The notes under the pieces were generated by a model, which saw only the letters and a list, made by a program, of their open reading frames with translations, was not told the DNA's origin and ran no database searches. A stretch of DNA of 44,830 nucleotides. It comes from a virus. Its lineage: Duplodnaviria; Caudoviricetes. The stretch spans positions 1-44,830 of the IMG/VR virus record IMGVR_UViG_3300029318_000015; one strand, given 5' to 3'. The first letter of the stretch is position 1. Each line of letters opens with the position of its first letter. Shown in pieces: positions 1 through 28,912 of this stretch. A program made the position numbers and the translations under genes.

Positions 1-2
1 AC

Positions 3-824
3 CTTCACATTTGCGGAGGTAATCGTTCGCTTGTCGATTTCGAGGAAGTTGAGAAAGTTCCTACTCCGCCTGTTGAGTACCGCAAGAAAGAAAATGCCAA
101 TGGCGAGCGAGCCGTTTCTTATCAACCAATCGCTCACCATGAGGTAGTTGATCGCACAAAGGGCTTTCTTAACCAAAATGGTTTCACCATTCAAGATGAG
201 GTTCATTCTCTCGCTAGGGGTAACCAACATTACTTTGGTTTGTTTGCCGTTGATCATCCTAATCGGGAAGCATCAGATCGCGGTTGCGTTGTGGGGATTC
301 GCAACTCTCACGACAAAACATTTCCTGCAGGGCTTTGTGCAGGTGACGCTCCCTTTGTTTGCGACAACTTGATTTTTACTAATACAATCAAGCTCGCTCG
401 CAGACATACTCGCAACATCTTGAACGATCTTGATACCACTATCAACCGAGCAATCGGTAAGCTTTTCAACTTTTGGCATGGTCAAGACCAAAGGATCGAG
501 GCTTATAAAAATCGTTCTATCGGTAATGTTCTCGCCCATGATCTTATCATCAAGGCAGTTCGTGCAGGTGCTTTGCCTAAGTCCAAAGTTTTAGATGTGG
601 CAGATCAGTGGGCATCTAGTGATCACCTTGAATTTCGTGATCGCAATGTAAATTCACTTTACAACGCATTCACAGAAGTTTACAAGGGTAACCTTGTAGC
701 GTTGCCAAATCGTTCAGACGCTCTTCATTCTGTTCTTGACAGCGTTGTCGATTTTGATATTGACAACCATGTCCCCAATGTCATAGATGTTGAGGTTGTC
801 GAAAACGAATTGGTATCAGTTTAA
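3..824 (+). CDS. DUF932-family phage protein, 5'-truncated at window edge
   Basis: Frame is open from position 3 (LHICGG...YQPIAHHEVV...HYFGLF), upstream of the track start at 240. Motifs GIRNSHDK and FVCDNL plus C-terminal SLYNAFTE are typical of DUF932. Confidence 0.75.
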   Translation, partial: LHICGGNRSLVDFEEVEKVPTPPVEYRKKENANGERAVSYQPIAHHEVVDRTKGFLNQNGFTIQDEVHSLARGNQHYFGLFAVDHPNREASDRGCVVGIRNSHDKTFPAGLCAGDAPFVCDNLIFTNTIKLARRHTRNILNDLDTTINRAIGKLFNFWHGQDQRIEAYKNRSIGNVLAHDLIIKAVRAGALPKSKVLDVADQWASSDHLEFRDRNVNSLYNAFTEVYKGNLVALPNRSDALHSVLDSVVDFDIDNHVPNVIDVEVVENELVSV

Positions 825-845
825 ATAGGGTTGTCGTTTGTCGTT

Positions 846-872
846 AGCCCCCCTCATTCGAGGGGGGTTTTT
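846..872 (+). terminator. Rho-independent terminator
   Basis: GCCCCCCTC-ATTC-GAGGGGGGT hairpin followed by a T tract, just after the 824 stop. Confidence 0.8.
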
Positions 873-891
873 AATGCCCCAAAAAATTTCC

Positions 892-969
892 TAAGTTACT
901 GATAATCAACGACTTATGGCACGGGCGGCGGGGCAGCTGTGCTGTAAATGCTTGTTATTCAATGACTTA
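892..969. repeat. 78-bp dispersed element, copy E1 (25-bp arm / 28-bp GC core / 25-bp arm)
   Basis: TAAGTTACTGATAATCAACGACTTA - TGGCACGGGCGGCGGGGCAGCTGTGCTG - TAAATGCTTGTTATTCAATGACTTA. Confidence 0.95.
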
Positions 970-999
970 CAACAAAATGAAATTTAATTCACTTTTTTC

Positions 1000-1028
1000 T
1001 TGCGTCGAATAGGTTTTTCTGTCAGTGT
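1000..1028 (+). promoter_or_regulatory. sigma70-like early promoter (leaderless geometry)
   Basis: TTGCGT-N17-CAGTGT-N6-ATG(1035). Confidence 0.6.
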
Positions 1029-1034
1029 ATAGGT

Positions 1035-1226
1035 ATGAAACGAATAATTGAAATCTTAATGACCCGCGACGGACTTTCCCGTGAAGAGGCGGAGGATCAA
1101 GTTACTGCATTTAATTCTGAAATGTGGATAGATGTTGGACAAGGCGGAGATCTCTTTGAATGGGAAGAAGCTTTCTCTAGTGAGTTCGGATTAGAGCCTG
1201 ACTTTTTTGAAGATTTAGTGCTTTAA
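1035..1226 (+). CDS. small acidic hypothetical phage protein
   Basis: 63 aa ORF starting 6 nt after a -10 box; motifs LMTRDGLSREEA and FGLEPDF. Confidence 0.8.
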   Translation: MKRIIEILMTRDGLSREEAEDQVTAFNSEMWIDVGQGGDLFEWEEAFSSEFGLEPDFFEDLVL

Positions 1227-1229
1227 TGC

Positions 1230-1258
1230 TTGCAATCGATAAAAAATTTGTTTAGTTT
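1230..1258 (+). promoter_or_regulatory. sigma70-like early promoter (leaderless geometry)
   Basis: TTGCAA-N17-TAGTTT-N6-ATG(1265). Confidence 0.75.
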
Positions 1259-1264
1259 TATATC

Positions 1265-1990
1265 ATGAACTTATTATCAAACCCATCAAAAATGCCTTGC
1301 TTAGGCTTTAACATTCCAGCTTTCAAGTATTGCCCAGCCGCTCAGCTTATGGCAAAAGTCAAGGACAAAGCAAAAAAGTTTATTTGCGATGCTTGTTATG
1401 CTTGCAAAGGTTTTTATATGTTTGCCAATGTCAAACAAAGCTTGCAAGACAAAGCCAATTTTGTTACCAAGTCTTTACATCAAGACAACGGGCAATCCTT
1501 TGTAGATGAGATTTCCAAGCAAATTACCAAAAAGTACTTTGACGCAAAAGGAAACAAAAAAGTTTTAAAGAATGTTAACACGGATCTTTTCAGGGTTCAT
1601 GATTCGGGCGACTTGTTTTCCCCAAAGTACATTGAGGCGTGGATTAAGATTTGCCAAAACTTTCCTTCAATTCGCTTTTGGTTTCCAACTCGTGAGTGGG
1701 CAAGGGATAGTCAATTGCCTTCATTAAAAAAGCTTGCAAGTTTAAAGAATGTATGCTTAAAGCCAAGTGCTTTGTATGTTGACGAACCCGCTCCACAAAT
1801 TGACGGACTCGACGCAGGCACTTCCGTTTATAGCTCAAAAGAGAAAGCCGAGCAAGACGGACATTTTGTTTGCCCCGCAACTTATGTTAAGGATCAAAAC
1901 GGCAAGATTTTAGCAACTTGTAATGCTCATAATTGCAACTTATGTTTTATCAAAGGGTGCAAAAAAGGTATTGCATATTTAGCACATTAA
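1265..1990 (+). CDS. GP88-like Cys-rich phage protein
   Basis: LSNPSKMP, CDACYACKG, FRVHDSGD, WFPTRE and a C-terminal CxxxxCxxC resemble the phage gene product 88 family. Confidence 0.7.
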   Translation: MNLLSNPSKMPCLGFNIPAFKYCPAAQLMAKVKDKAKKFICDACYACKGFYMFANVKQSLQDKANFVTKSLHQDNGQSFVDEISKQITKKYFDAKGNKKVLKNVNTDLFRVHDSGDLFSPKYIEAWIKICQNFPSIRFWFPTREWARDSQLPSLKKLASLKNVCLKPSALYVDEPAPQIDGLDAGTSVYSSKEKAEQDGHFVCPATYVKDQNGKILATCNAHNCNLCFIKGCKKGIAYLAH

Positions 1991-1998
1991 GTTATATT
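1971..1998 (+). promoter_or_regulatory. sigma70-like early promoter (leaderless geometry)
   Basis: TTGCAT-N16-TATATT-N6-ATG(2005). Confidence 0.6.
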
Positions 1999-2004
1999 AG
2001 AATT

Positions 2005-2175
2005 ATGAATTATTACGACTCAGCCGAAGAAATTACTATCACTCAAGATCGTGCCTTGCAAGAATTAGCAAAACACGGAATTACTTCTAATGAAGAGATT
2101 TTAGAATTTTTTGCCGATGTGGGCGAGCAAGAAGAGTACGACGCACAAAAAGTTTTGGTTTGGTTAGGCTACTAG
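2005..2175 (+). CDS. small acidic hypothetical protein (start revised from 1933)
   Basis: MNYYDSAEEI...VLVWLGY; ATG 2005 fits the promoter geometry and avoids overlap with the upstream gene. Confidence 0.75.
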   Translation: MNYYDSAEEITITQDRALQELAKHGITSNEEILEFFADVGEQEEYDAQKVLVWLGY

Positions 2176-2212
2176 CTTTAAACCCAAAATAACAAATAGA
2201 AACTTGCCAAAT

Positions 2213-2234
2213 ACCCCCGAACACCAGGGGGTTT
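2213..2234 (+). terminator. possible weak terminator
   Basis: ACCCCC-GAACACCA-GGGGGT with a short T run, at the same position relative to E2 as the terminators before E1 and E3. Confidence 0.4.
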
Positions 2235-2266
2235 CGGTGTTTGTAGTAAAAACCCCAAAAATTTCC

Positions 2267-2344
2267 TAAGTTGCTGATTATCAACGACTTATGGCACGGG
2301 CGGCGGGGCCGCCGTGCTGTAAATGCCTGATATTCAACAGGTTA
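2267..2344. repeat. 78-bp dispersed element, copy E2
   Basis: TAAGTTGCTGATTATCAACGACTTA - TGGCACGGGCGGCGGGGCCGCCGTGCTG - TAAATGCCTGATATTCAACAGGTTA. Confidence 0.95.
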
Positions 2345-2374
2345 CAACAAAGTGAAAAAAAGTTCACTTTTTTC

Positions 2375-2403
2375 TTGCATTAACTGACAAAAAGCTTTAG
2401 TGT
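2375..2403 (+). promoter_or_regulatory. sigma70-like early promoter (leaderless geometry)
   Basis: TTGCAT-N17-TAGTGT-N6-ATG(2410). Confidence 0.7.
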
Positions 2404-2409
2404 GTTTAT

Positions 2410-2595
2410 ATGACGACAACCAAAGAACTAATCGAACTAATCAATTCAACCGAAGATGGCGAGATGTGGCTATATGATAGTAGGCTTACCAATCATTTAT
2501 CATTAGTAGAGCAAGCACTCGAAGAAGATTTAATTTACTTTGTAAGATCAGCTGATGGTGGATCGGTAACAGAATATCTTCGAGTTTCTTTCTGA
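2410..2595 (+). CDS. hypothetical protein
   Basis: 61 aa ORF directly after promoter. Confidence 0.75.
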   Translation: MTTTKELIELINSTEDGEMWLYDSRLTNHLSLVEQALEEDLIYFVRSADGGSVTEYLRVSF

Positions 2596-2600
2596 TTAGC

Positions 2601-2629
2601 TTGACAAACAACAAAAATTAAACTAGATT
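2601..2629 (+). promoter_or_regulatory. sigma70-like early promoter
   Basis: TTGACA-N17-TAGATT-N9-ATG(2639). Confidence 0.75.
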
Positions 2630-2638
2630 TTATTTATT

Positions 2639-3034
2639 ATGATTAACTACGACATACCAAACTCAATCTCACAATTCAATCCAAAACCTTCTATGCTAGA
2701 TTTTGACGATCTAGATTTTCAACCACATCGTGGTACTGATGATGCAGTCCAAGCAACGCTTGATTTTGGCAACGGACTCTCTATTTCTGTCGTCGCAGGA
2801 TTTGATGGATGTAGAGGACTTTATGGTGATTTAGAGGAAGACCTTTACGAAGTTGCAATCTTTGACAAAAACGGCATGATTCCACTTTCTCCTAGTGACG
2901 ATGTTGTCGGTTGGCAATCTCCTGCTCAAGTATCTATCCTAATGGCAAAAGCTCAAGTCGAAGGAAGCGTTTGGGTTGACGAACTAATTGCAGACAAAGC
3001 AGAATTTAGAAGAGATTTAGGGCTTGACGACTAA
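2639..3034 (+). CDS. hypothetical phage protein
   Basis: 131 aa; FGNGLSISVV...GLYG...LYEVAI...DDVVGW pattern resembles small phage proteins. Confidence 0.8.
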   Translation: MINYDIPNSISQFNPKPSMLDFDDLDFQPHRGTDDAVQATLDFGNGLSISVVAGFDGCRGLYGDLEEDLYEVAIFDKNGMIPLSPSDDVVGWQSPAQVSILMAKAQVEGSVWVDELIADKAEFRRDLGLDD

Positions 3035-3052
3035 TTACAACTAAACTATATT
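3024..3052 (+). promoter_or_regulatory. sigma70-like early promoter (leaderless geometry)
   Basis: TTGACG-N17-TATATT-N6-ATG(3059). Confidence 0.75.
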
Positions 3053-3058
3053 AAACAC

Positions 3059-3256
3059 ATGAAGATAAAAATTGAAGATTACTACGGCAATGATATTTGT
3101 TCGTTTAAGGTTAACACTTTCGCAAGCAACAATAGCTTACAAGACATTGGAGAGTTTGAAGGTTGCAGTTATGCAGACATGGACATAGACGAATATTCTG
3201 AGCCATATATTCGCATACAATTAGAAAATGAAAACTTGACTTTATTACAAAACTAA
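3059..3256 (+). CDS. small acidic hypothetical protein
   Basis: 65 aa ORF directly after promoter. Confidence 0.75.
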   Translation: MKIKIEDYYGNDICSFKVNTFASNNSLQDIGEFEGCSYADMDIDEYSEPYIRIQLENENLTLLQN

Positions 3257-3264
3257 ACTAGATT
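3236..3264 (+). promoter_or_regulatory. sigma70-like early promoter (leaderless geometry)
   Basis: TTGACT-N17-TAGATT-N6-ATG(3271). Confidence 0.75.
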
Positions 3265-3270
3265 ACTATT

Positions 3271-3567
3271 ATGACAGACAACGAAAAAGCAATCCGTAAA
3301 GCTAACGCCCAATTTGGGGAAGAGTTCCTTAGTTCTAAAAAACAGGAATGGCTCGCAATCCGAAAAGATCATAGAATTGACCGAGACAACGCAATTCTTG
3401 ATTTAGTAAAAGCAGGTGTTGACATCCTTGAAGCAAGAGCTATTATTGACAGAGAAATCAAAGAAGAAGAAGACACTTTTAAATTCATTGCAGTAAATGA
3501 AATTCGCAGACAGAAAAGAGCATTAGAGAAAGAGTTAAAAGTTAAAACCCACAAAAATTCATTATGA
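3271..3567 (+). CDS. hypothetical helical protein
   Basis: 98 aa ORF directly after promoter. Confidence 0.75.
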   Translation: MTDNEKAIRKANAQFGEEFLSSKKQEWLAIRKDHRIDRDNAILDLVKAGVDILEARAIIDREIKEEEDTFKFIAVNEIRRQKRALEKELKVKTHKNSL

Positions 3568-3830
3568 CAGAAGAACAAAGAATCGCAATTATCGCCAACG
3601 CATATCGTGAGTCGAAAGGCTTGCCAAGCAACAATCTAGTTGAGGACTTCGTTTCAGAAGTCAAGACAGAAGAGTTTGTTACTGAACATGGATTATTTGA
3701 TGTCACAGACCAAGACATCGAAGATGAGGCTTCGCTTTTCGAGCATCACGAATCTGCCGAAGACATTGACGAAGAAGACGAAGACATGGGAGTGTCTGAC
3801 GAGATGAAAGGAGTTTATCATGATAGTTGA
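3564..3830 (+). CDS. highly acidic hypothetical protein
   Basis: 88 aa, ATGA overlap with the previous gene, D/E-rich C-terminal two thirds. Confidence 0.75.
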   Translation: MTEEQRIAIIANAYRESKGLPSNNLVEDFVSEVKTEEFVTEHGLFDVTDQDIEDEASLFEHHESAEDIDEEDEDMGVSDEMKGVYHDS

Positions 3831-3888
3831 GTTGTTAATGTTCTCGCCTTGGGTGCTTGTGTTTTGGATGATATGGGAAGGAATTTAG
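3820..3888 (+). CDS. 22-aa hydrophobic peptide (not in ORF track)
   Basis: AAGGAG at 3808-3813, then MIVELLMFSPWVLVFWMIWEGI*. Confidence 0.5.
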   Translation: MIVELLMFSPWVLVFWMIWEGI

Positions 3889-3907
3889 TTATAGAATAAG
3901 TCTATAA

Positions 3908-3997
3908 GCAGAGCCAAGGAGTTCTTTATATTATCTCCAAAGGGATAAATGCGAGTGGGGGCAACAAATCCCCATGATGACCACAAACCTGTTCTGC
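3908..3997 (+). ncRNA. candidate structured RNA (multibranch), unclassified
   Basis: Closing stem GCAGAGC/GTTCTGC encloses hairpins TTATCTC-CAAA-GGGATAA and TGGGGG-CAACAAA-TCCCCA; lies immediately upstream of a terminator. Confidence 0.3.
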
Positions 3998-4005
3998 ATA
4001 TAGTG

Positions 4006-4041
4006 AAGCCCTTCCGTTAAGCGTTGACGGAGGGGCTTTTT
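4006..4041 (+). terminator. Rho-independent terminator
   Basis: AAGCCCTTCCGTTAA-GCG-TTGACGGAGGGGCTT followed by TTT. Confidence 0.85.
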
Positions 4042-4060
4042 ATTGCCCTAAAAAATTTCG

Positions 4061-4138
4061 TAAGTTGCTGAATATCAACGACTTACAGCAGGCCGCGCGG
4101 GGCCGCCGTGCCATAAACCCCTCATATACAACACTTTA
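4061..4138. repeat. 78-bp dispersed element, copy E3
   Basis: TAAGTTGCTGAATATCAACGACTTA - CAGCAGGCCGCGCGGGGCCGCCGTGCCA - TAAACCCCTCATATACAACACTTTA. Confidence 0.95.
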
Positions 4139-4168
4139 CAACAAAATGAAAAAAACATTAAAAAAAGC

Positions 4169-4197
4169 TTGCAATTAGTTTTTATTTCGCTTAGTTT
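4169..4197 (+). promoter_or_regulatory. sigma70-like early promoter (leaderless geometry)
   Basis: TTGCAA-N17-TAGTTT-N6-ATG(4204). Confidence 0.75.
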
Positions 4198-4203
4198 ATT
4201 ATT

Positions 4204-4392
4204 ATGCAAAACATTAAATCACTACTCAAAAGAATCGACGAACTACAAGCCATTATTGACACCGAAACCCCTGACGCAGACGCAGGGTGCGATTGGTCAA
4301 AGTCGCTTGTTATTAACGCTGAGAACGAAAAGGACGAAGTGCAAGATCGCATTGATGCCCTTGCTCTTTTTGTCGCAGTAAGTAATCTATAA
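4204..4392 (+). CDS. hypothetical protein
   Basis: 62 aa ORF directly after promoter. Confidence 0.75.
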   Translation: MQNIKSLLKRIDELQAIIDTETPDADAGCDWSKSLVINAENEKDEVQDRIDALALFVAVSNL

Positions 4393-4404
4393 GAAAGGAA
4401 AATT

Positions 4405-4632
4405 ATGACAGACACAACATATAACGGATGGAAGAACTGGGCAACCTGGAATGTCGCCCTTTGGTTAGGAAACGACGAAGGCTTATATAGGCTTTCTCGT
4501 AGGTTCGTGAGTTACAAGGATCTTGCGAATGAACTTGAGGAACTTGGCACTTTTAGCACTCCTGACGGAGCGAGTTACAAGGATGATGACCTTGACACCT
4601 ACGCACTTGATGAGTGGCTTATGGACGAATAG
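4405..4632 (+). CDS. conserved-type small phage protein (YNGWxNWxTW motif)
   Basis: GAAAGGAA RBS; TYNGWKNWATWNVALWLGNDEGLY is a motif recognisable from small phage proteins. Confidence 0.85.
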   Translation: MTDTTYNGWKNWATWNVALWLGNDEGLYRLSRRFVSYKDLANELEELGTFSTPDGASYKDDDLDTYALDEWLMDE

Positions 4633-4636
4633 TCCA

Positions 4637-4714
4637 TAAGTTACTTATAATCAGCGACTTACAGCAAAGTCGCCGTGCGCGGTTTGCCATAAACCCTTGA
4701 TATTCAAGGATTTA
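4637..4714. repeat. 78-bp dispersed element, copy E4 (at the convergence point of the early genes)
   Basis: TAAGTTACTTATAATCAGCGACTTA - CAGCAAAGTCGCCGTGCGCGGTTTGCCA - TAAACCCTTGATATTCAAGGATTTA. Confidence 0.95.
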
Positions 4715-4733
4715 TAGAAACCATTTTTAAGTG

Positions 4734-5042
4734 TTAAAAAACGAGAAGATCAGGCAACTTTGTGTTACTTGCGAACCAATCGTTTGCGTTAATTACTTCC
4801 CCGTTTAACACAGGCTCAAATTGGAACTGAAAAACATTGGCATTGGCTATGCCGTTGACGCGTTCGCGTGTGGTGGGCGTATTCCATCCCGCGAGTGACC
4901 ACCTGACAAGTCCGTCAGGATCACGCTTGACAATTGCGTTGCCATGCAACCAAACGGTTTGCCCGTCTGTCTTGGTGTTGCCGACTTTTAAAGATCTGCC
5001 TTCTTCAAAGGCTTTTTTGATTTGTTGTGTGACTTTTCTCAT
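4734..5042 (-). CDS. hypothetical phage protein
   Basis: 102 aa; VWLHGNAI...SLAGWNTPTTRERVNG; start overlaps the stop of the upstream gene. Confidence 0.85.
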   Translation of the reverse strand: MRKVTQQIKKAFEEGRSLKVGNTKTDGQTVWLHGNAIVKRDPDGLVRWSLAGWNTPTTRERVNGIANANVFQFQFEPVLNGEVINANDWFASNTKLPDLLVF

Positions 5043-5215
5043 ATTTCTTCAGTGTTAATTATTAAAACTCTATTGCCTTTTTTTCTTTCTTCTTTTTTTA
5101 GTTCTTTTGCAATTTCCATCGCTTGAGCTTGTGATTTTGCGTTGTCTACGATTTTCCCAAAAAAGCGAATGTCAAACCAATTTGAGAAGTTAGTGTTTTT
5201 TCCTATTGTGATCAT
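5039..5215 (-). CDS. 58-aa hypothetical protein (not in ORF track)
   Basis: MITIGKNTNFSNWFDIRFFGKIVDNAKSQAQAMEIAKELKKEERKKGNRVLIINTEEI*; starts 6 nt after a -10 box; ATGA overlap with the next gene. Confidence 0.75.
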   Translation of the reverse strand: MITIGKNTNFSNWFDIRFFGKIVDNAKSQAQAMEIAKELKKEERKKGNRVLIINTEEI

Positions 5216-5221
5216 GATTAT

Positions 5222-5250
5222 AAACTAAAAGATTTTTTGTTGAATTGCAA
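5222..5250 (-). promoter_or_regulatory. sigma70-like early promoter (leaderless geometry)
   Basis: TTGCAA-N17-TAGTTT-N6-ATG(5215). Confidence 0.75.
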
Positions 5251-5253
5251 GCT

Positions 5254-5442
5254 TTATTTTGCAAAAAGTGGGTGAATTTTTACATCCTCAAAACGAATGC
5301 CAACTTGGCGATTAGTGAGGTATGGGCGAACCATTGCGATAGTGCCGAGATCTTCGTGCTCGGTAGCTTGGATAAACTGAAAGATTTTGCCATCCCTTGA
5401 GAGGAGAACATCACCTTTTTTGAATTTTGTTGTCTTTGTCAT
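5254..5442 (-). CDS. hypothetical protein, possibly a small SH3/KOW-like barrel (start revised from 5580)
   Basis: MTKTTKFKKGDVLLSRDGKIFQFI...; ATG 5442 fits the promoter. Confidence 0.7.
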   Translation of the reverse strand: MTKTTKFKKGDVLLSRDGKIFQFIQATEHEDLGTIAMVRPYLTNRQVGIRFEDVKIHPLFAK

Positions 5443-5450
5443 ATAAGTAT

Positions 5451-5479
5451 ACTCTAAGAAATTTTTTGTCGAATTGCAA
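5451..5479 (-). promoter_or_regulatory. sigma70-like early promoter
   Basis: TTGCAA-N17-TAGAGT-N8-ATG(5442). Confidence 0.75.
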
Positions 5480-5491
5480 GCAAAAAGCGTT

Positions 5492-5677
5492 TTATTTTGA
5501 ATTATTTTTATGAGTGAATTCGGCTTGATTGATCCAATGATCGAGCCAAGCTTGATTTTCTGCCAAAAGATTTTTGGCAATCTGAACCATTACAGCGTTG
5601 CTGTCGTGGGCAATGGTTTCCCGTAGGATCACCATTTCGGCTTTAACTTTTGAGAGGAGTCTCACTGATTTATCCAT
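5492..5677 (-). CDS. hypothetical protein
   Basis: 61 aa ORF directly after promoter. Confidence 0.75.
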   Translation of the reverse strand: MDKSVRLLSKVKAEMVILRETIAHDSNAVMVQIAKNLLAENQAWLDHWINQAEFTHKNNSK

Positions 5678-5683
5678 AATTAT

Positions 5684-5712
5684 AAACTAGCAGTTTAATG
5701 ATTTTATTGCAA
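5684..5712 (-). promoter_or_regulatory. sigma70-like early promoter (leaderless geometry)
   Basis: TTGCAA-N17-TAGTTT-N6-ATG(5677). Confidence 0.75.
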
Positions 5713-5728
5713 GAAAAAAGTTTGCGAA

Positions 5729-5902
5729 TTATAAACTTTTATTTGCGGCATCTTTTACCATTTGAATATTCCACAAGTGACCACCTGGGCATTCCCAAAG
5801 CATATGGTCAGCATGAAGGCAGACCACAAGTTTAAGTCCATTGTCTTTGATGAACTTGTCGATTCCTAACTTTGTGAGATGTGTTTGAATTTCGTTTGTC
5901 AT
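5729..5902 (-). CDS. 57-aa WECPGGHxW-motif protein (paralog A; start revised from 5920)
   Basis: MTNEIQ...FIKDNGL...MLWECPGGHLWNIQMVKDA. Confidence 0.75.
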   Translation of the reverse strand: MTNEIQTHLTKLGIDKFIKDNGLKLVVCLHADHMLWECPGGHLWNIQMVKDAANKSL

Positions 5903-5910
5903 ATAAGTAT

Positions 5911-5939
5911 AAACTAGCAAAGAAACAAGCTAATTGCAA
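5911..5939 (-). promoter_or_regulatory. sigma70-like early promoter
   Basis: TTGCAA-N17-TAGTTT-N8-ATG(5902). Confidence 0.75.
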
Positions 5940-6009
5940 GAAAAAAACAACAAAGTTATTCACAAAATGCAATTTAAAAGTTGGCACGGAATCTGTATCG
6001 AGTTTTATG

Positions 6010-6087
6010 TAAGTTATTGAATATCAATGACTTACAGCACAAACCGCGCGGGCGGCCTGCCATAAACCCTTGATATTCAAGGACTTA
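6010..6087. repeat. 78-bp dispersed element, copy E5
   Basis: TAAGTTATTGAATATCAATGACTTA - CAGCACAAACCGCGCGGGCGGCCTGCCA - TAAACCCTTGATATTCAAGGACTTA. Confidence 0.95.
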
Positions 6088-6101
6088 TGTAAACCGTTGT
6101 A

Positions 6102-6197
6102 TTATCCTGCTATTAGGTGGGCTAATCCAGCGACACCAAACAAGATGACTGATCCACCTAAACCTGTGACTAAAACTAATGTAACTAATTCTCTCAT
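6102..6197 (-). CDS. 31-aa single-TM peptide (not in ORF track)
   Basis: MRELVTLVLVTGLGGSVILFGVAGLAHLIAG*; ATGA overlap with the stop of 6194..6418. Confidence 0.6.
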   Translation of the reverse strand: MRELVTLVLVTGLGGSVILFGVAGLAHLIAG

Positions 6198-6418
6198 AAA
6201 CTTTCTATAAACTCTTTGAACGCAAAGATGTGATGTCCTTGCGTAAGATTGACTTTTTCTGATATGTCAACTATATTCCCACTTTTGTAATTTTTTTCGA
6301 AACATTCTTGCCCGATTTGAACATCGTATTGCTCACGCTTGTAATCGGGGTGAGCAGATGAGCAGATGATAGGGATGCCTGTCGAACCTAATTTTGTAAG
6401 TATCCAATGTGCTTGCAT
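6194..6418 (-). CDS. hypothetical protein
   Basis: 74 aa ORF in a tightly packed minus-strand unit. Confidence 0.7.
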   Translation of the reverse strand: MQAHWILTKLGSTGIPIICSSAHPDYKREQYDVQIGQECFEKNYKSGNIVDISEKVNLTQGHHIFAFKEFIESL

Positions 6419-6427
6419 GATACTAGA

Positions 6428-6655
6428 TTAGACTTTTCCGTTCTCCATGTCAATCAATTTTTGACGAGATTTTACGGCAAGTTCAACAGCGTGTAATGCG
6501 TCCAAGATTGCCATGCCTTGCGTAATGCTTAGAGTCGTGTCGCCTTCGGTATTCGTTGACTTGGCAAGGTAACGAAGGTTACCCAATGCTTTTGAGAGAG
6601 AAAGACCGAGATCCAACTCGGTGTCTAATTTTTTTCTTATTGCGTAGTCTATCAT
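6428..6655 (-). CDS. hypothetical helical protein (start revised from 6799)
   Basis: MIDYAIRKKLDTELDLG...; starts 4 nt after the stop of 6660..6836. Confidence 0.7.
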   Translation of the reverse strand: MIDYAIRKKLDTELDLGLSLSKALGNLRYLAKSTNTEGDTTLSITQGMAILDALHAVELAVKSRQKLIDMENGKV

Positions 6656-6659
6656 ATTA

Positions 6660-6836
6660 TTATGCTCCGTCCATGTAATGAGATTTATGCTCTTCCCAAG
6701 CTTCTTCGATTTGTTTAAGAGTCCAAACATTGCCCCCAACATCTTCGTACATATGAGTGCCCGTTTCGACATCAAAAAAAATGTGGTCAAAGATTGCAAG
6801 TTCTTCTTCCATGAATTCTATTAGTTCTAATTTCAT
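6660..6836 (-). CDS. 58-aa protein, divergent paralog B of the WECPGGHxW family (not in ORF track)
   Basis: MKLELIEFMEEELAIFDHIFFDVETGTHMYEDVGGNVWTLKQIEEAWEEHKSHYMDGA*; AGAAAGG upstream. Confidence 0.7.
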   Translation of the reverse strand: MKLELIEFMEEELAIFDHIFFDVETGTHMYEDVGGNVWTLKQIEEAWEEHKSHYMDGA

Positions 6837-6844
6837 ATTTTACC

Positions 6845-6873
6845 TTTCTAATCTATTTTAAAAACTTTGTCAA
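6845..6873 (-). promoter_or_regulatory. possible sigma70-like early promoter
   Basis: TTGACA-N17-TAGAAA-N8-ATG(6836). Confidence 0.5.
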
Positions 6874-7091
6874 GCATTTCTCTCAACTGATCTCCAACCA
6901 AAAGCACGAACTTGATCCTCGTGGCGAGCTTGTGGCAAGAGGCTTTTAAGCGTCTCGATGCGAGCAAGAATCCACTTGCGAGTGTCGCCTGTGGCAGGTA
7001 CAAACTCACGCAGATCGTGGTCGAAGTGGTCGCAATCAAGGCGACGCTCGAGGCTTTCAATGTCGAATTTAATTTCTTCTGTTTTACTCAT
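6870..7091 (-). CDS. hypothetical protein
   Basis: 73 aa ORF directly after promoter. Confidence 0.75.
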   Translation of the reverse strand: MSKTEEIKFDIESLERRLDCDHFDHDLREFVPATGDTRKWILARIETLKSLLPQARHEDQVRAFGWRSVERNA

Positions 7092-7097
7092 ATTATT

Positions 7098-7126
7098 ACT
7101 CTAAGAAAATTTTTGTTGAATTGCAA
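7098..7126 (-). promoter_or_regulatory. sigma70-like early promoter (leaderless geometry)
   Basis: TTGCAA-N17-TAGAGT-N6-ATG(7091). Confidence 0.75.
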
Positions 7127-7138
7127 GAAAAAAGATAA

Positions 7139-7315
7139 TTATTTTTCTAAAGAACATAAAAAATTTTTTAATTCCACTGCTTGTTTAATCATTTCCCAAT
7201 TCCAAACATGACCACCTGGACATTCCCAAAGGTCGGAAGTCTCGGACATCGGACTTGCTTGGATACGGACAAGATCGTTATCTTGAATGAATTGTTGTAT
7301 TTCTTTATCTAACAT
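7139..7315 (-). CDS. 58-aa WECPGGHxW-motif protein (paralog C; not in ORF track)
   Basis: MLDKEIQQFIQDNDLVRIQASPMSETSDLWECPGGHVWNWEMIKQAVELKNFLCSLEK*. Confidence 0.75.
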   Translation of the reverse strand: MLDKEIQQFIQDNDLVRIQASPMSETSDLWECPGGHVWNWEMIKQAVELKNFLCSLEK

Positions 7316-7321
7316 ATTTAT

Positions 7322-7350
7322 ACTCTCTCATATAAATTAACAAAAGTCAA
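7322..7350 (-). promoter_or_regulatory. possible sigma70-like early promoter (leaderless geometry)
   Basis: TTGACT-N17-GAGAGT-N6-ATG(7315). Confidence 0.55.
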
Positions 7351-7608
7351 ATTTTTTTTCAATTATTTCGCAACTATTTTCCTGCACGATCCCCCTACCC
7401 GTTTTATGAATCGAAAAGGTCAACTTTATTTCAGAATAGGGCGGGGGGTGGTAATTTTCAAAATCAAAATATAAATTCATAATTTACAATAATTAGTAAA
7501 GTCAAAAAAAATCGGCGCCTATTTTCAAAAACAAGCATTATATCTTATAAAAAAAGGAAAAAAAGAAAAATTAATAGAAATTGCCCCGAATCCCTAATAA
7601 TATTAGAT

Positions 7609-7878
7609 ATGGATAAAAACGAAGTTGTTTTAGAAATCGCCAATGACATACTAAATAGTTTGAACATTGGACAAATTGTTAACGTTTTGCGTGATCACTC
7701 ACTCAATCAAGCGAATGCTTATTACGACGGCTTGAGCGACGAGCAAAGATCCGAAATTGAAGAGAAAATTCTCGAAAATCGCAAGAAAGCTGAAGCGGCC
7801 CAGAAAGAGGCTGAAGAAGCAGCTAGCCAAAAAGAAGAAGAAGAAAAACCAGCAGAAGATCTAGAAGTAGTTTCTTAA
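7609..7878 (+). CDS. hypothetical protein with charged C-terminal tail
   Basis: 89 aa ORF. Confidence 0.75.
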   Translation: MDKNEVVLEIANDILNSLNIGQIVNVLRDHSLNQANAYYDGLSDEQRSEIEEKILENRKKAEAAQKEAEEAASQKEEEEKPAEDLEVVS

Positions 7879-8105
7879 GCCTGGACATGATAGTTGGTTT
7901 TTCTAAACCTGGCTATCACAGATTCTTTACCGTGTAACTGAAGAGATACACAACTAAAGCCCGCTATATCTAAGCGGGTTTTTAGTATCGGCAGGAATTT
8001 AACGGGCAAGTTCATTATAAAGAATTCCCGATTATCGCTTTTAGGATCTGCGATCAAGATTTCGTAGCAAAATTCCCAGCAAAAGTTATAGATCGAATTT
8101 TCCAT
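7875..8105 (-). CDS. hypothetical protein
   Basis: 76 aa ORF overlapping the end of 8086..8334. Confidence 0.6.
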   Translation of the reverse strand: MENSIYNFCWEFCYEILIADPKSDNREFFIMNLPVKFLPILKTRLDIAGFSCVSLQLHGKESVIARFRKTNYHVQA

Positions 8106-8334
8106 TTGATTTTTGGATTAATTCATAAACTAATTTAGTTTCTCCATCAATCATCAATTCAGCGGGCGTTCTTCCATTCTCGGATGCAATTGGCGTATTG
8201 AGCCAAATCGTTGATCCATATATGGAATATTTTTTTGCTATCAACTTCATGATATCATATTTCGTTGGCTGCGTTTCCCCTATCGATAGCTCGACGTTTT
8301 TGTCTGTCTTTTTGACTTTTGGTTTTTTGCTCAC
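8086..8334 (-). CDS. antitoxin Xre/MbcA/ParS C-terminal (DUF2384-like) domain protein
   Basis: WLNTPIASENGRTPAELMIDGETKLVYELI matches the WLxxPxxxLxGxxPxxL pattern; GTG start 9 nt after a GTGTA motif. Confidence 0.7.
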   Translation of the reverse strand: MSKKPKVKKTDKNVELSIGETQPTKYDIMKLIAKKYSIYGSTIWLNTPIASENGRTPAELMIDGETKLVYELIQKSNGKFDL

Positions 8335-8343
8335 AATAATATT

Positions 8344-8348
8344 TACAC
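8344..8348 (-). promoter_or_regulatory. GTGTA late-promoter-like motif
   Basis: GTGTA-N9-GTG(8334); divergent from a + strand copy at 8396-8400. Confidence 0.5.
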
Positions 8349-8429
8349 TAATTAATTTATTTTACTAAAAAGATTTGATTAATTCAATAAATGGCGTGTA
8401 TTATATTGAAAATACTTTTATATAATAAC

Positions 8430-9137
8430 ATGTCAAAAAAAGACAAGGTAGAAATACCACAACTAAAACTAACGTTCAAGGTTAACAACCTTCGATTAAC
8501 TGAGAAGCAAAAAATATTTTTAGCTTTAGCATTACAAGAGGAAACTAATATCATGTTTGTGAGTGGACCAGCTGGTTCAACCAAAACATATATGGCAGTT
8601 TATGCGGCATTAAGGCATTTAAGCGCAGATGATGATTTAGATATGTTTTACGTCCGTACAGTGATTGAAAGTGCAGATAAAGGTCTTGGAGCGCTTCCAG
8701 GAAGCGTGGAAGAAAAAATCAATCCATACATGGCACCTCTTGAAGACAAGTTAATGGAAATGTTGCCACAAAACAAAACAGTCCGCAGAGAATTGATTGA
8801 CAGTGGAAGAATCCAAGCTATGCCAATTAACTTTTTGCGCGGGGCGAGTTGGAAGGACAAAGTTGTTGTTGCAGACGAGGCTCAAAACTTTACTTTTAAA
8901 GAATTAACGACATTAATTACAAGATTGGGGCATAACAGTAAATTATTTATTTGCGGCGATTTTATGCAGAGTGATATTAATGGAAAAAGCGGCTATGCCG
9001 ATATGTTTAATTTATTCAAAGACCAAGAAAGTCAAGACAATGGAATTCACTGTTTTAGTTTTAATAAAAATGACATTTTAAGAAGTGAGTTGCAAAAGTA
9101 TATCATAGGTAAATTAGAGGATAATTATAAAAAATAG
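8430..9137 (+). CDS. phoH: PhoH-family ATPase (start probably 8430)
   Basis: GPAGSTKT (variant Walker A), LGALPGSVEEKINPY, FLRGAS, DEAQN, LITRLG, GDFMQSD. Confidence 0.92.
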   Translation: MSKKDKVEIPQLKLTFKVNNLRLTEKQKIFLALALQEETNIMFVSGPAGSTKTYMAVYAALRHLSADDDLDMFYVRTVIESADKGLGALPGSVEEKINPYMAPLEDKLMEMLPQNKTVRRELIDSGRIQAMPINFLRGASWKDKVVVADEAQNFTFKELTTLITRLGHNSKLFICGDFMQSDINGKSGYADMFNLFKDQESQDNGIHCFSFNKNDILRSELQKYIIGKLEDNYKK

Positions 9138-26971: not shown

Positions 26972-28912
26972 ATGGCCCGTTCTAGAATAACATATCAAAG
27001 TCAAGCATTGTATGCAGGAAACATTCTGCAGCATGAACCCCAGCAATTATACAGAATACAAACAGCTGGGCATTCTGTCGACGTCCAATACGTTGATATA
27101 CAAGAATTAGGAATATTAAAGTCTTTAGATAGGGAGGTTATTGAAGCTCCAGTAGTTAATCTTGATTTTACATATTTTATCCTAGATGGAAAAAATGAAA
27201 GAAGTTTGGGCTTAACTGTAGAGCATCGAGATGGAATTAGTTCTCCTACAAATTTTTTATATGGATTATTAGATCATTCAACTGACGAAAAGAATTATTA
27301 TTTATTAATAGCCCCAGAAAATAAAGATGCAGCAGATGGAACAAGCAGTTATCCTATTAATGAAAATGGAGTTTTAGGAATAGGTAATGGTTATATAACT
27401 AATTATAATATTTCCGCCGCGATTGGTGAGATACCAACCGCCAGCGTTACCATCGAAGCGGCTAATATAAGATTTGATACTAATAGCGTAAATATAGATA
27501 ATCCAGCAATAGATGTAGAAACTGGAGACGAAGTTAATTACCCAATTGATATACCAGTTGCAACCGATGGTTGGACAGAGCTTTCTGCTTATATATTAAA
27601 GCCTGGTGATATTAGATTAAATTTTGGAAACGAACAGTTTCTTGAGGGTGGTGTGTTATTGCATGGAATGGATAACGCAAATGATAATGAAGCATGCGTT
27701 CAAAGTTTTGAAATAGACATCCCAATAAGCAGAAATCCTAAACTTTGTTTAGATAGATTTCATCCAGTAGATCGGGAGATACAATTTCCGATAAACGCGA
27801 CTTTATCAGTAACCGCAAACGTCTTAAGCACGTCCGCTGGAACACTAAGAAATGTAATATGTAATCCTCAGCAAGAAAGAGAGATATCTATTAAGTTTAA
27901 GCGGGAATGCAGCGAAGAAGACAACATGGTTTATACCTTCAAGGGTGCTATTTTGGAGTCTCAGGGCATGAGTTCTCAATTCGCTGATTCTCAAACCGTT
28001 GATTTAGTTTTTTCTACACAAATAGAGTCTTATTCAACAACAACCAAAGGTGTATTTTTGGCGGCTCCTACTACAACAACTACATTGCCTCCATTTAGTG
28101 CTCCAACATCTCCTAACTCCCCAGGAACTCCTTGCGAAACAGATTACGATGGAGAATATTTTTATGTTTGTACTGCTACTAACACATGGGAAAGAATTGC
28201 AATCGCAAGAATAGATCATGGATTAGGCGAACAAGGAGATACAGACTACGACGATAATTACTTTTATATTTGCATATACAATGGAATCATGGACCCCAGA
28301 AAAGGAAGGATCAGTATCTGGGGAAGATTTCCTTTATCGGCGACCACATTTTCTATGCCTGGTTCAGAAGGAGACACTCATTGTGCGCCTAGTTATTATT
28401 ATGTCAATACAAGCGCTGGATGGAAAGAAGCGGCTTTAGCAACGTGGGTAGGTTACACAACCACTAGTACTACTGGCATTCCTACAACAACGACAACTAC
28501 AACATCTGGCCCCACAACAACGAGCACGACAACAACATCTAGCCCTACAACAACGACTACTACGACATCTGGCCCTACAACAACCAGCACGACAACATTT
28601 GGGCCTACAACATCGACGACTAGCACGACAACAACGACAACATCTGGTCCTACTACCACAACTAGTACGACAGCTGCACCTGGAACGACAACTAGTACAA
28701 CAACCAGTACAACCAGCTCGACCAGCACAAGTACCAGCACAAGTACCAGCACAAGTAGTACAACAAGCACAACTAGTACAACGCCTGGAGGTTTCACGAC
28801 TACTACACCTTCGCCTGGAACAACGTCGACTACTTCAACAAGCACAAGCACCAGTACAAGTAGTACAAGCACAAGCACCAGCACCAGCACTAGTACGACA
28901 ACTAGTCCCTAG
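26972..28912 (+). CDS. tail-tube paralog with three short YxYxC/W repeats and a Thr/Ser-rich mucin-like tail
   Basis: MARSRITYQSQALYAG vs MARKRIIYQSEALYAG; collinear with the major tube over ~365 aa; C-terminal ~150 aa almost entirely T/S/P/G. Confidence 0.75.
   Translation: MARSRITYQSQALYAGNILQHEPQQLYRIQTAGHSVDVQYVDIQELGILKSLDREVIEAPVVNLDFTYFILDGKNERSLGLTVEHRDGISSPTNFLYGLLDHSTDEKNYYLLIAPENKDAADGTSSYPINENGVLGIGNGYITNYNISAAIGEIPTASVTIEAANIRFDTNSVNIDNPAIDVETGDEVNYPIDIPVATDGWTELSAYILKPGDIRLNFGNEQFLEGGVLLHGMDNANDNEACVQSFEIDIPISRNPKLCLDRFHPVDREIQFPINATLSVTANVLSTSAGTLRNVICNPQQEREISIKFKRECSEEDNMVYTFKGAILESQGMSSQFADSQTVDLVFSTQIESYSTTTKGVFLAAPTTTTTLPPFSAPTSPNSPGTPCETDYDGEYFYVCTATNTWERIAIARIDHGLGEQGDTDYDDNYFYICIYNGIMDPRKGRISIWGRFPLSATTFSMPGSEGDTHCAPSYYYVNTSAGWKEAALATWVGYTTTSTTGIPTTTTTTTSGPTTTSTTTTSSPTTTTTTTSGPTTTSTTTFGPTTSTTSTTTTTTSGPTTTTSTTAAPGTTTSTTTSTTSSTSTSTSTSTSTSSTTSTTSTTPGGFTTTTPSPGTTSTTSTSTSTSTSSTSTSTSTSTSTTTSP
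28456..28909 (+). repeat. low-complexity coding repeat (ACN/AGY codons; TTTTSGP and TS units)
   Basis: Degenerate ACAACA/ACCAGCACAAGT tandem units. Confidence 0.9.

Follow-up and report, generated by a model that had tools for sequence, protein, structure and literature searches.

Paired symmetric IHF-consensus sites around a GC-rich spacer mark gene-block junctions in the likely early region of an uncultured tailed phage

Introduction

In T4-type phages, PeSL cassettes form repeated terminator/promoter junctions in variable regions of small genes, and they are gained and lost by recombination between the repeats without a dedicated recombinase (excerpts of PMC2839356 and PMC4122927). Host DNA-bending proteins have been described at several mobile or viral sites. 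Integration host factor (IHF) of E. coli recognizes the consensus WATCAR-N4-TTR (lambda H') and introduces two kinks 9 bp apart (bioRxiv 10.1101/382655, in part), and it relieves H-NS repression at the early promoter Pe of phage Mu (PMC8501957, in part). The IHF site of the IS10 outside end reaches bp +42 (PMC3159471, in part), and leaders of type I-F clustered regularly interspaced short palindromic repeat (CRISPR) arrays contain paired IHF sites that fold the DNA (bioRxiv 10.1101/2023.05.26.542337, in part). Here we describe a 78-bp element found in five copies in positions 1 to 44,830 of the IMG/VR record IMGVR_UViG_3300029318_000015 (the whole stretch, 44,830 nt, is called the window), which derives from a tailed phage. 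The element consists of two symmetric IHF-consensus sites (arms) around a GC-rich spacer (core) of fixed length, and it lies at the junctions of small-gene blocks. A literature search outside supplements, such as the motif lists of phage-genome papers, returned no description of the element; in the passages of the matching papers that were examined, full-text matches of arm 12-mers were primers.

Results

Five elements in the window and two upstream of it

A first-pass annotation made from the letters of the sequence had proposed five 78-bp elements with an invariant 25+28+25 bp geometry. Both the positions and the lengths were reproduced, as follows.

892..969, no strand: element E1, arm 892-916, 28-bp GC-rich core 917-944, arm 945-969 (pattern matches)
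2267..2344, no strand: element E2, arm 2267-2291, core 2292-2319, arm 2320-2344 (pattern matches)
4061..4138, no strand: element E3, arm 4061-4085, core 4086-4113, degenerate arm 4114-4138 (pattern and profile)
4637..4714, no strand: element E4, 4 bp past the DUF7249 stop codon, where the plus- and minus-strand gene blocks converge
6010..6087, no strand: element E5, arm 6010-6034, core 6035-6062, arm 6063-6087 (pattern matches)

The GC content of the cores was 0.64-0.86. The arm consensus proposed earlier, TAA-N5-TGA-W3-TCA-N5-TTA, was borne out: it was matched exactly by 7 of the 10 arms, with one mismatch by 2, and with two mismatches by the right arm of E3. When up to one mismatch was allowed, the single-arm pattern gave 9 matches, compared with 0.15 +/- 0.39 in shuffled sequences, and a minimal two-arm pattern gave 9 strand matches, all at E1 to E5, compared with 0.03 expected by chance. 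Chance is therefore ruled out as the origin of the elements. The core ends are polar, reading TGGCA...TGCTG in E1 and E2 and CAGCA...TGCCA in E3 to E5.

The annotation had noticed no copy outside 892-6087. This holds within the window, and the array continues upstream of it. A 194,521-base record (G001), which differs from window positions 1-9000 by 10 mismatches, carries seven elements, including two at window-equivalent positions of about -2890 and -578; the window thus truncates the array. The profile scan of the full genome that had been proposed detected exactly 14 arms in G001, all within one 9-kb island and none elsewhere.

The arm is a symmetric IHF-type site

To define the arm, 351 distinct arms of 198 distinct elements from 31 loci were aligned; the loci came from pattern scans, which biases the set toward the motif. 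Positions A2, A3, T9, A17, T23 and T24 were invariant or nearly so. The 25-bp arm can be read as two back-to-back halves of WATCAR-N4-TTR, each starting at the central base. The strict consensus, which is that of E. coli, was present in at least one half of 277 of the 351 arms and in both halves of 53; in the window, it was present in 8 of the 10 arms. A match to a known host-factor site, named in the first-pass annotation as grounds for regarding the elements as ordinary operators, was thus obtained.

The TT step (positions 8-9) and the AA step (positions 17-18) of the arm are 9 bp apart. One IHF kink presumably falls at the AA step, and the two kinks may be centered on the TT and AA steps. 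Like the E. coli site (bioRxiv 10.1101/382655, in part), each half has the consensus and its spacing, with the two steps separated as the kinks are. Unlike that site, the phage arm, a predicted binding site, is mirror-symmetric, with a second TTR where the E. coli site has its A-tract, and occurs in pairs at a fixed spacing.

Base-pair covariation gave no positive signal, either within arms (top z of 1.9 over 12 position pairs) or between arms (top z of 1.6 over 25 position pairs). Among the ten strand folds of E1 to E5, six had z below -3, E1 and E3 folded no better than shuffled sequences, and the predicted folds varied from copy to copy. Core fold z was weak in most loci, with a hairpin core in a lineage with 33-bp cores (mean z of -2.0). 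The unpaired N5 halves reported for the right arm of E2 were confirmed. A hairpin model for the arms was rejected on the lack of covariation and the copy-dependent folds. For the same reasons, a symmetric protein appears to read the arm as double-stranded DNA, in agreement with the earlier preference for a dimeric protein over a hairpin.

The same data bear on the idea that the elements work as RNA or single-stranded DNA, namely as bidirectional terminators, as small RNAs started from the sigma-54-type box described below, or as REPIN-like hairpins. The six stable folds and the hairpin core of the 33-bp lineage agree with this idea, and so do two further points: genes often end right at an element without another terminator, and a sigma-54 start would fall at the arm edge. 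The missing covariation, the copy-varying folds, the shuffle-like E1 and E3, the weak core z and the lack of an Rfam family (nothing above the gathering score over window 1-8500) make it very improbable.

A binder for the arms was sought among phage genes. PF00216 (HU/IHF) was found in none of 20 phage records of the clade, of which 8 are rated at least 90% complete and several are incomplete. Pfam scans of 49 window open reading frames (ORFs) and 216 further G001 ORFs, a set that leaves out 7 border-crossing ORFs and a tape-measure-like ORF, detected RecA, SSB, a RuvB-like ATPase and a PD-(D/E)XK nuclease, and neither an HU-like protein nor an integrase. At tblastn sensitivity, and with comparison genomes that may be incomplete, none of 274 G001 ORFs was present in at least 3 of 4 two-arm genomes yet missing from an armless relative (G070). 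Because none of the phage genes tested qualified, a host protein would be the simplest binder of the arms. We consider it likely that the arms are bound by an IHF-type protein.

Spacing is fixed within a phage and free between phages

Core length was examined in 327 elements from 46 loci, 42 of which have at least three elements. It was modal for the locus in 313 elements; only two of the non-modal cores were off by one base, and the rest were gaps to third arms or belonged to a two-class locus. Within-locus core identity averaged mostly 0.56-0.85. Since the length is constant despite core drift, core length is apparently under selection within a phage. Between phages, the core measured 16, 17, 20, 21, 23, 25, 26, 27, 28 or 33 bp, and the arm centers were 41, 42, 45, 48, 50, 51, 52, 53 or 58 bp apart, corresponding to 3.9-5.5 helical turns. 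Arm spacing thus varies between phages and not within a phage. The earlier proposal, that a spacing of about five turns places both arms on the same DNA face for a looping protein, stands as to the fixed spacing within a phage and fails as to the relatives. A universal five-turn phasing was rejected, the same-face argument is limited to some lineages, and the integral helical spacing expected of a looping pair was not found across relatives.

Copy number ranged from 7 to at least 17 elements, and arms numbered about 14-28 per genome. As separate observations, head-to-tail amplified elements were seen at L001:5375-5650 (96-bp units) and at L024:2685-3100 (170-bp spacing, with extra arms).

An unbiased set was fetched through the sigma-like gene. 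Among 49 loci with at least 5 kb upstream of it, 11 showed arm pairs, many of the remainder possibly falling short of the island, and none of the 49 had an arm downstream in the structural block. G070, which is rated 100% complete, shares the island genes and the GC blocks and has no arms. In a 23-row tree, from which four loci without one marker were dropped, G070 nested among lineages with 27-bp cores, which suggests arm loss. Two other relatives carry degenerate arms (G072) and half-arms (G071). Some lineages can therefore do without the arms, an argument against an essential role in entry or packaging. In G070 the -35 box is preceded, at 21 bp, by a ATTGTGCAA-type motif. More widely, L448:5737-14450 (G070), L450 and L453 have a GC block and then ATTGTGCAA, at a distance of 21 or 31 bp from the -35 box; in armless or half-armed relatives, ATTGTGCAA constitutes a second undescribed promoter-upstream motif.

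Staged DNA entry has a model in the injection-stop signal of T5, and the elements could likewise be entry signals, as the annotation had also proposed, or genome-terminus signals. In four large records every arm falls in a single island of 9-16 kb, whose genes are likely the first to be expressed, and the arm-bearing island often lies close to a contig end. Against this stand the armless G070, which is rated complete and disfavors the claim, and the variable copy number. In addition, relatives have genes from the two G001 ends next to each other, so the contig terminus is not demonstrated to be a physical one. We regard entry or terminus signals as quite improbable.

Terminator-like hairpins, predicted promoters and a sigma-54-type box flank the elements

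The following flanking features were assigned in the window.

846..873, plus strand: terminator-like hairpin and T run upstream of E1 (pattern match)
970..1037, plus strand: 30-bp A/T tract, then a predicted leaderless sigma-70-type promoter (-35 at 1000, 17-bp spacer, -10, 6 nt, ATG at 1035)
2211..2238, plus strand: terminator-like hairpin with a short T tail upstream of E2 (pattern match)
2345..2412, plus strand: 30-bp A/T tract, then a predicted leaderless promoter (-35 at 2375, ATG at 2410)
4005..4041, plus strand: terminator-like hairpin and T run upstream of E3 (pattern match)
4139..4206, plus strand: 30-bp A/T tract, then a predicted leaderless promoter (-35 at 4169, ATG at 4204)
5900..5939, minus strand: predicted leaderless promoter pointing away from E5 (-35 from 5939, 70 bp off the element; ATG at 5902)
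5981..5997, plus strand: sigma-54-type -24/-12 box facing E5 (TGGCAC begins 28 bp before the arm)

Each of E1 to E3 has a terminator-like hairpin on one side and, on the other, a predicted leaderless promoter with its -35 box beginning exactly 30 bp past the arm. This gap was 30 bp in 5 of the 7 G001 elements and 29-31 bp on 43 of 169 promoter-bearing sides, recurring in the 16-, 17- and 28-bp lineages. Inward terminator-like hairpins were found on 82 of 656 element sides, compared with 10 of 504 control positions. No promoter or terminator was found flanking E4. Many island genes appear leaderless, with a -10 box 6-8 nt before the ATG (window 1000-7126).

The arrangement resembles the Mu early promoter Pe in that a site for a host bending protein lies upstream of a phage early promoter (PMC8501957, in part). 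It differs in having two symmetric sites per module and at least seven modules, some of them promoterless, in a large phage of lytic type in which no integrase was found.

A motif that the first-pass annotation had not noted, of the form TTGGCAYR-N4-YTG, starts 27-28 bp outside the arm and faces it on 47 of 647 flanks, in 19 loci and with five core lengths; outward hits numbered 7 and were scattered. When hits were chosen on TGGCAY alone at 27-28 bp, all had TG at the -12 place, and C followed in 34% of the 47. On sides with the box, the outward promoter was shifted to 56-117 bp. The box at window 5981-5997 matches the form of the pspA and hydN sites of Salmonella mapped by chromatin immunoprecipitation, with GG at -24 and TG at -12 (PMC3844500, in part). 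In contrast to the promoters in that source, the E5 box faces IHF-type sites and points away from the gene, and no enhancer or activator was identified for it. A sigma-54 gene was found in none of 5 records, and a match to a sigma-54 activator profile in G001 falls in a ClpB-like ORF.

Two side observations concern this region. Each window core, that of E4 (4662-4689) included, opens with TGGCA on one strand, which is the -24 half of a sigma-54 box without the -12 half; 29 cores of the 28-bp class share this start. Between the E5 box and the minus-strand promoter, at window 5956-5964, lies TTATTCACA, which resembles a DnaA box; this is a single match and maybe a chance one.

Arms and boxes could act as decoys or parking places, drawing in host IHF and sigma-54 polymerase and thereby disturbing host functions such as CRISPR adaptation or sigma-54 stress responses. 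The symmetric near-consensus sites and the orientation of the boxes away from the neighboring gene are in line with this, as are the missing sigma-54 gene and the placement of the activator-profile match in G001. In addition, closed complexes of sigma-54 polymerase are stable even when no activator is present (PMC3844500, in part). A sink needs neither a fixed 30-bp promoter offset nor a fixed core length. Moreover, IHF is an abundant nucleoid protein, against which about 14-28 arms per genome are few. We therefore judge a decoy role improbable.

Gene gain, loss and crossovers at the elements

The annotation had proposed that recombination shuffles gene cassettes at the elements, and gene-content breakpoints unrelated to them were to speak against it. 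Insertions and deletions (indels) were compared between G001, including the window, and three related loci (L074, L108 and L014). Eleven clean one-sided indels were counted, a number that excludes five two-sided replacements and one inversion and in which some losses may be shared events. Three were bounded by elements, and eight lay elsewhere, several of them at repeated promoter/start regions. An element is present at 7 of about 33 island junctions in G001; since 3 of 11 is near this share, there is no clear enrichment of indels at elements.

The element-bounded events were insertions relative to the window genome: 335 bp at E4 in L074, and 377 bp and 457 bp in L014, where the 457-bp insertion occurs twice. 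An additional element-bounded insertion was found in L018, and the inversion terminates at E4. E4 itself is a clean left/right hybrid of two L074 elements, with the switch within 4 shared bases at arm positions 14-17; three other crossover comparisons in G001 were ambiguous. In other lineages, one crossover mapped to the core (positions about 31-39), and two, the exchanges between L061 and L263, mapped past the element to the adjoining terminator. Cassette exchange at the elements thus finds support in the three insertions and the E4 hybrid, and the eight indels elsewhere are breakpoints of the kind that speaks against it.

These data weigh on two explanations. The first is that a dedicated site-specific recombinase acts on the elements, which would then resemble integron attC sites or invertase sites. 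The rigid geometry, the narrow E4 crossover and the polar core ends would suit such an enzyme. The annotation had found no recombinase in the window, which agrees with the Pfam scans of the 49 window ORFs, with the qualification that G001 encodes RecA. Neither PF00589 (tyrosine) nor PF00239 (serine) recombinases were detected in the 20 clade records. In addition, crossovers in the left arm, the core and the terminator define no fixed point, the arm is an odd-length dyad, and there is no conserved single-strand fold or covarying stem. An attC-like role is accordingly disfavored, and a dedicated recombinase is extremely improbable. The scattered crossovers, together with phage RecA, indicate homologous exchange and not an integron-like enzyme.

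The second explanation is that the elements persist chiefly because they offer PeSL-like exchange points, repeats of homologous sequence at unit borders that would let cassettes be swapped safely, with IHF bending aiding synapsis. The element-bounded insertions in L074, L014 (two) and L018, the E4 hybrid, the inversion ending at E4 and the presence of RecA in G001 favor it. On the other hand, most clean indels lie off the elements at a rate near the junction share, both L061/L263 exchanges lie beyond the element, and homology alone needs no invariant IHF bases alongside 30-40% core drift. We consider it unlikely that exchange is the main reason for their maintenance.

The elements share with the PeSL cassettes of T4-type phages (PMC2839356 and PMC4122927, in part) the repeated terminator/promoter junctions, the variable small-gene region, and the gain and loss of cassettes by recombination between repeats without a dedicated recombinase. 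A stem-loop joined to a strong sigma-70-like promoter, which characterizes PeSL, is present at E1 to E3, and E4 has neither part. They differ in that a 78-bp twin protein site with a GC-rich core stands between terminator and promoter and in that most indels lie at promoters without elements; the term IHF is absent from the text of PMC2839356. The element would act like an IHF site set in a PeSL-like junction and is not a member of the integron group.

The same arm in Bacteroidota chromosomes

A scan of bacterial genomes, covering 35 of 64 parts, yielded 129 loci, 128 of them Bacteroidota by title, and nearly all cores were AT-rich. One Microscillaceae metagenome-assembled genome (MAG) contributed 90 of the 129. 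Several Bacteroidota DDE_Tnp_1 elements have an arm pair directly beside the terminal inverted repeat, at about bp 19-43 counted from the end, and in a single CRISPR leader an arm is located between cas2 and the first repeat of the array. The arm therefore occupies places equivalent to those of the IHF sites of the IS10 outside end and I-F CRISPR leaders, where paired sites fold DNA (PMC3159471 and bioRxiv 10.1101/2023.05.26.542337, both in part); the phage elements differ in having no linked transposase, Cas1 or terminal repeat. These settings agree with the reading of the arm as an IHF site and do not name the phage host.

Several variants of the arm layout were recorded. The MAG (Prado074; L112-L238) has about 90 loci of a repeat that combines two of these arms with an AT-rich core, mostly of 21 bp, and makes up a REP/MITE-like chromosomal family. 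In the DDE_Tnp_1 elements at L143:1124-1212, L154, L148, L140 and L113, two arms 18-19 bp apart lie beside one terminal repeat, upstream of the transposase. L182 (G009:C1, 127-139 kb), on a contig binned as Saccharibacteria, carries an element with a 32-bp GC-rich core that resembles the 33-bp phage lineage, and it is probably a mis-binned phage. Viral contigs with a different layout (L008, L009, L072, L076, L078, L080 and many of L259-L321) have arm pairs with AT-rich cores, one or two of them, or, as in L080, dense arrays of arms.

The phage and its island

The 44.8-kb window is part of a tailed-phage genome and has matches to PhoH, a sigma-like protein, an ERCC4 nuclease, terminase and a tail tube. 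Its presumed capsid protein clusters with viral groups; among isolated phages there was no capsid relative and no element match except a chance 30-mer, and plasmids gave short chance matches only. About 1,600 viral stretches encode the marker gene of the clade. Window DNA is present in marine metagenome runs, with 7 of 24 listed rows containing at least half of the window's words, two of these being possible sources; the listed runs were all assembled contigs and included no RNA run. A host search through GMP-reductase homologues and a protein atlas gave no usable host. The island and its genes with Pfam matches are as follows.

1..7315, plus strand to 4632 and minus strand from 4734: island of small, mostly unknown genes, likely the early region (Pfam, ORF list)
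Window start, in the island: DUF932, 5' end cut (Pfam)
1265-1990, plus block: GP88 (Pfam)
4405-4632, plus block: DUF7249 (Pfam)
4734-5042, minus block: Kyano_Gp96 (Pfam)

PADLOC gave no match on 19 island proteins. At the island head, upstream of the window start in G001, a manA RNA (Rfam RF01745, 92.9 bits, above the gathering score) lies at L099:15403-15615 on the minus strand and is conserved in L014. CCGG occurs 0 times in G001 (123 expected) and is absent from window 1-44830, and ACGT, TAAG/CTTA and GGCC are also depleted; this composition suggests host restriction pressure. Restriction-decoy cores were rejected, as CCGG is missing from G001 cores too and depleted in cores generally. Elsewhere, a 646-aa protein has a Thr/Ser repeat tail (window 28450-28910), the tape-measure-like ORF at window 32853-44830 encodes 4,557 aa at full size in G001, and G001 (L093-L096) has a big block of glycosyltransferase, sulfotransferase and sugar-nucleotide genes.

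Discussion

Taken as a whole, the results may well mean that the elements are boundary modules for a host protein of the IHF/HU family, which would bend the DNA and regulate or insulate the early promoters. A host IHF-like dimer would bind each arm upon DNA entry, producing two sharp turns. The bent arms and the GC block, in some copies together with a parked sigma-54 polymerase, could then form a roadblock that separates transcription units. This roadblock might also shield the A/T-rich promoter from AT-binding silencers, the effect that IHF has at Mu Pe. Being repeats, the elements, like the neighboring repeated promoters and terminators, would occasionally become crossover points for homology-driven gain and loss of cassettes, probably through phage RecA. 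Cassette shuffling would thus be a by-product and not the purpose of the design.

Several observations weigh against this reading. The host's IHF-like protein and any silencer are assumed in it. E4 has no adjacent promoter, and of 419 island promoters only 166, a minority, are within 124 bp of an element. Helical phasing between arm and promoter is weak, with a Rayleigh Z of 6.4 at 10.5 bp over 95 distinct distances and a Z of about 5 for the same distances at 12.5-13 bp as well. Sigma-54 and IHF are classical partners, and their usual arrangement is inverted here, with the box pointing toward the IHF sites. A simple roadblock does not account for a core length that is constant in each lineage and varies from one lineage to another. 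Among bacteria, the CRISPR-leader case is a single one, the targeted pattern having matched 3 of 201 genomes, one of which was inspected. Solo arms numbered 33 in 60 sampled Bacteroidota genomes compared with 8 for reversed-pattern controls, a modest excess, and 19 inspected solo arms lay mostly beside ordinary genes (tRNA association in 1 of 19).

A wider proposal is possible and is made tentatively. A large uncultured phage clade could build host-protein insulators on its first-entering DNA from symmetric IHF sites, a GC block and often a parked sigma-54 polymerase, so that the early region is cut into silencer-proof, exchangeable cassettes. If true, these insulators would be a phage chromatin-boundary element without a described counterpart, and the clade would program its early DNA with cis sites for host architectural proteins and not with regulators of its own. 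The elements would then provide a directly testable model for DNA-encoded anti-silencing or insulation. The natural symmetric IHF-type site may aid in finding the IHF-like protein and the host, and the junctions would give a sharper view of recombinase-free shuffling in accessory gene islands.

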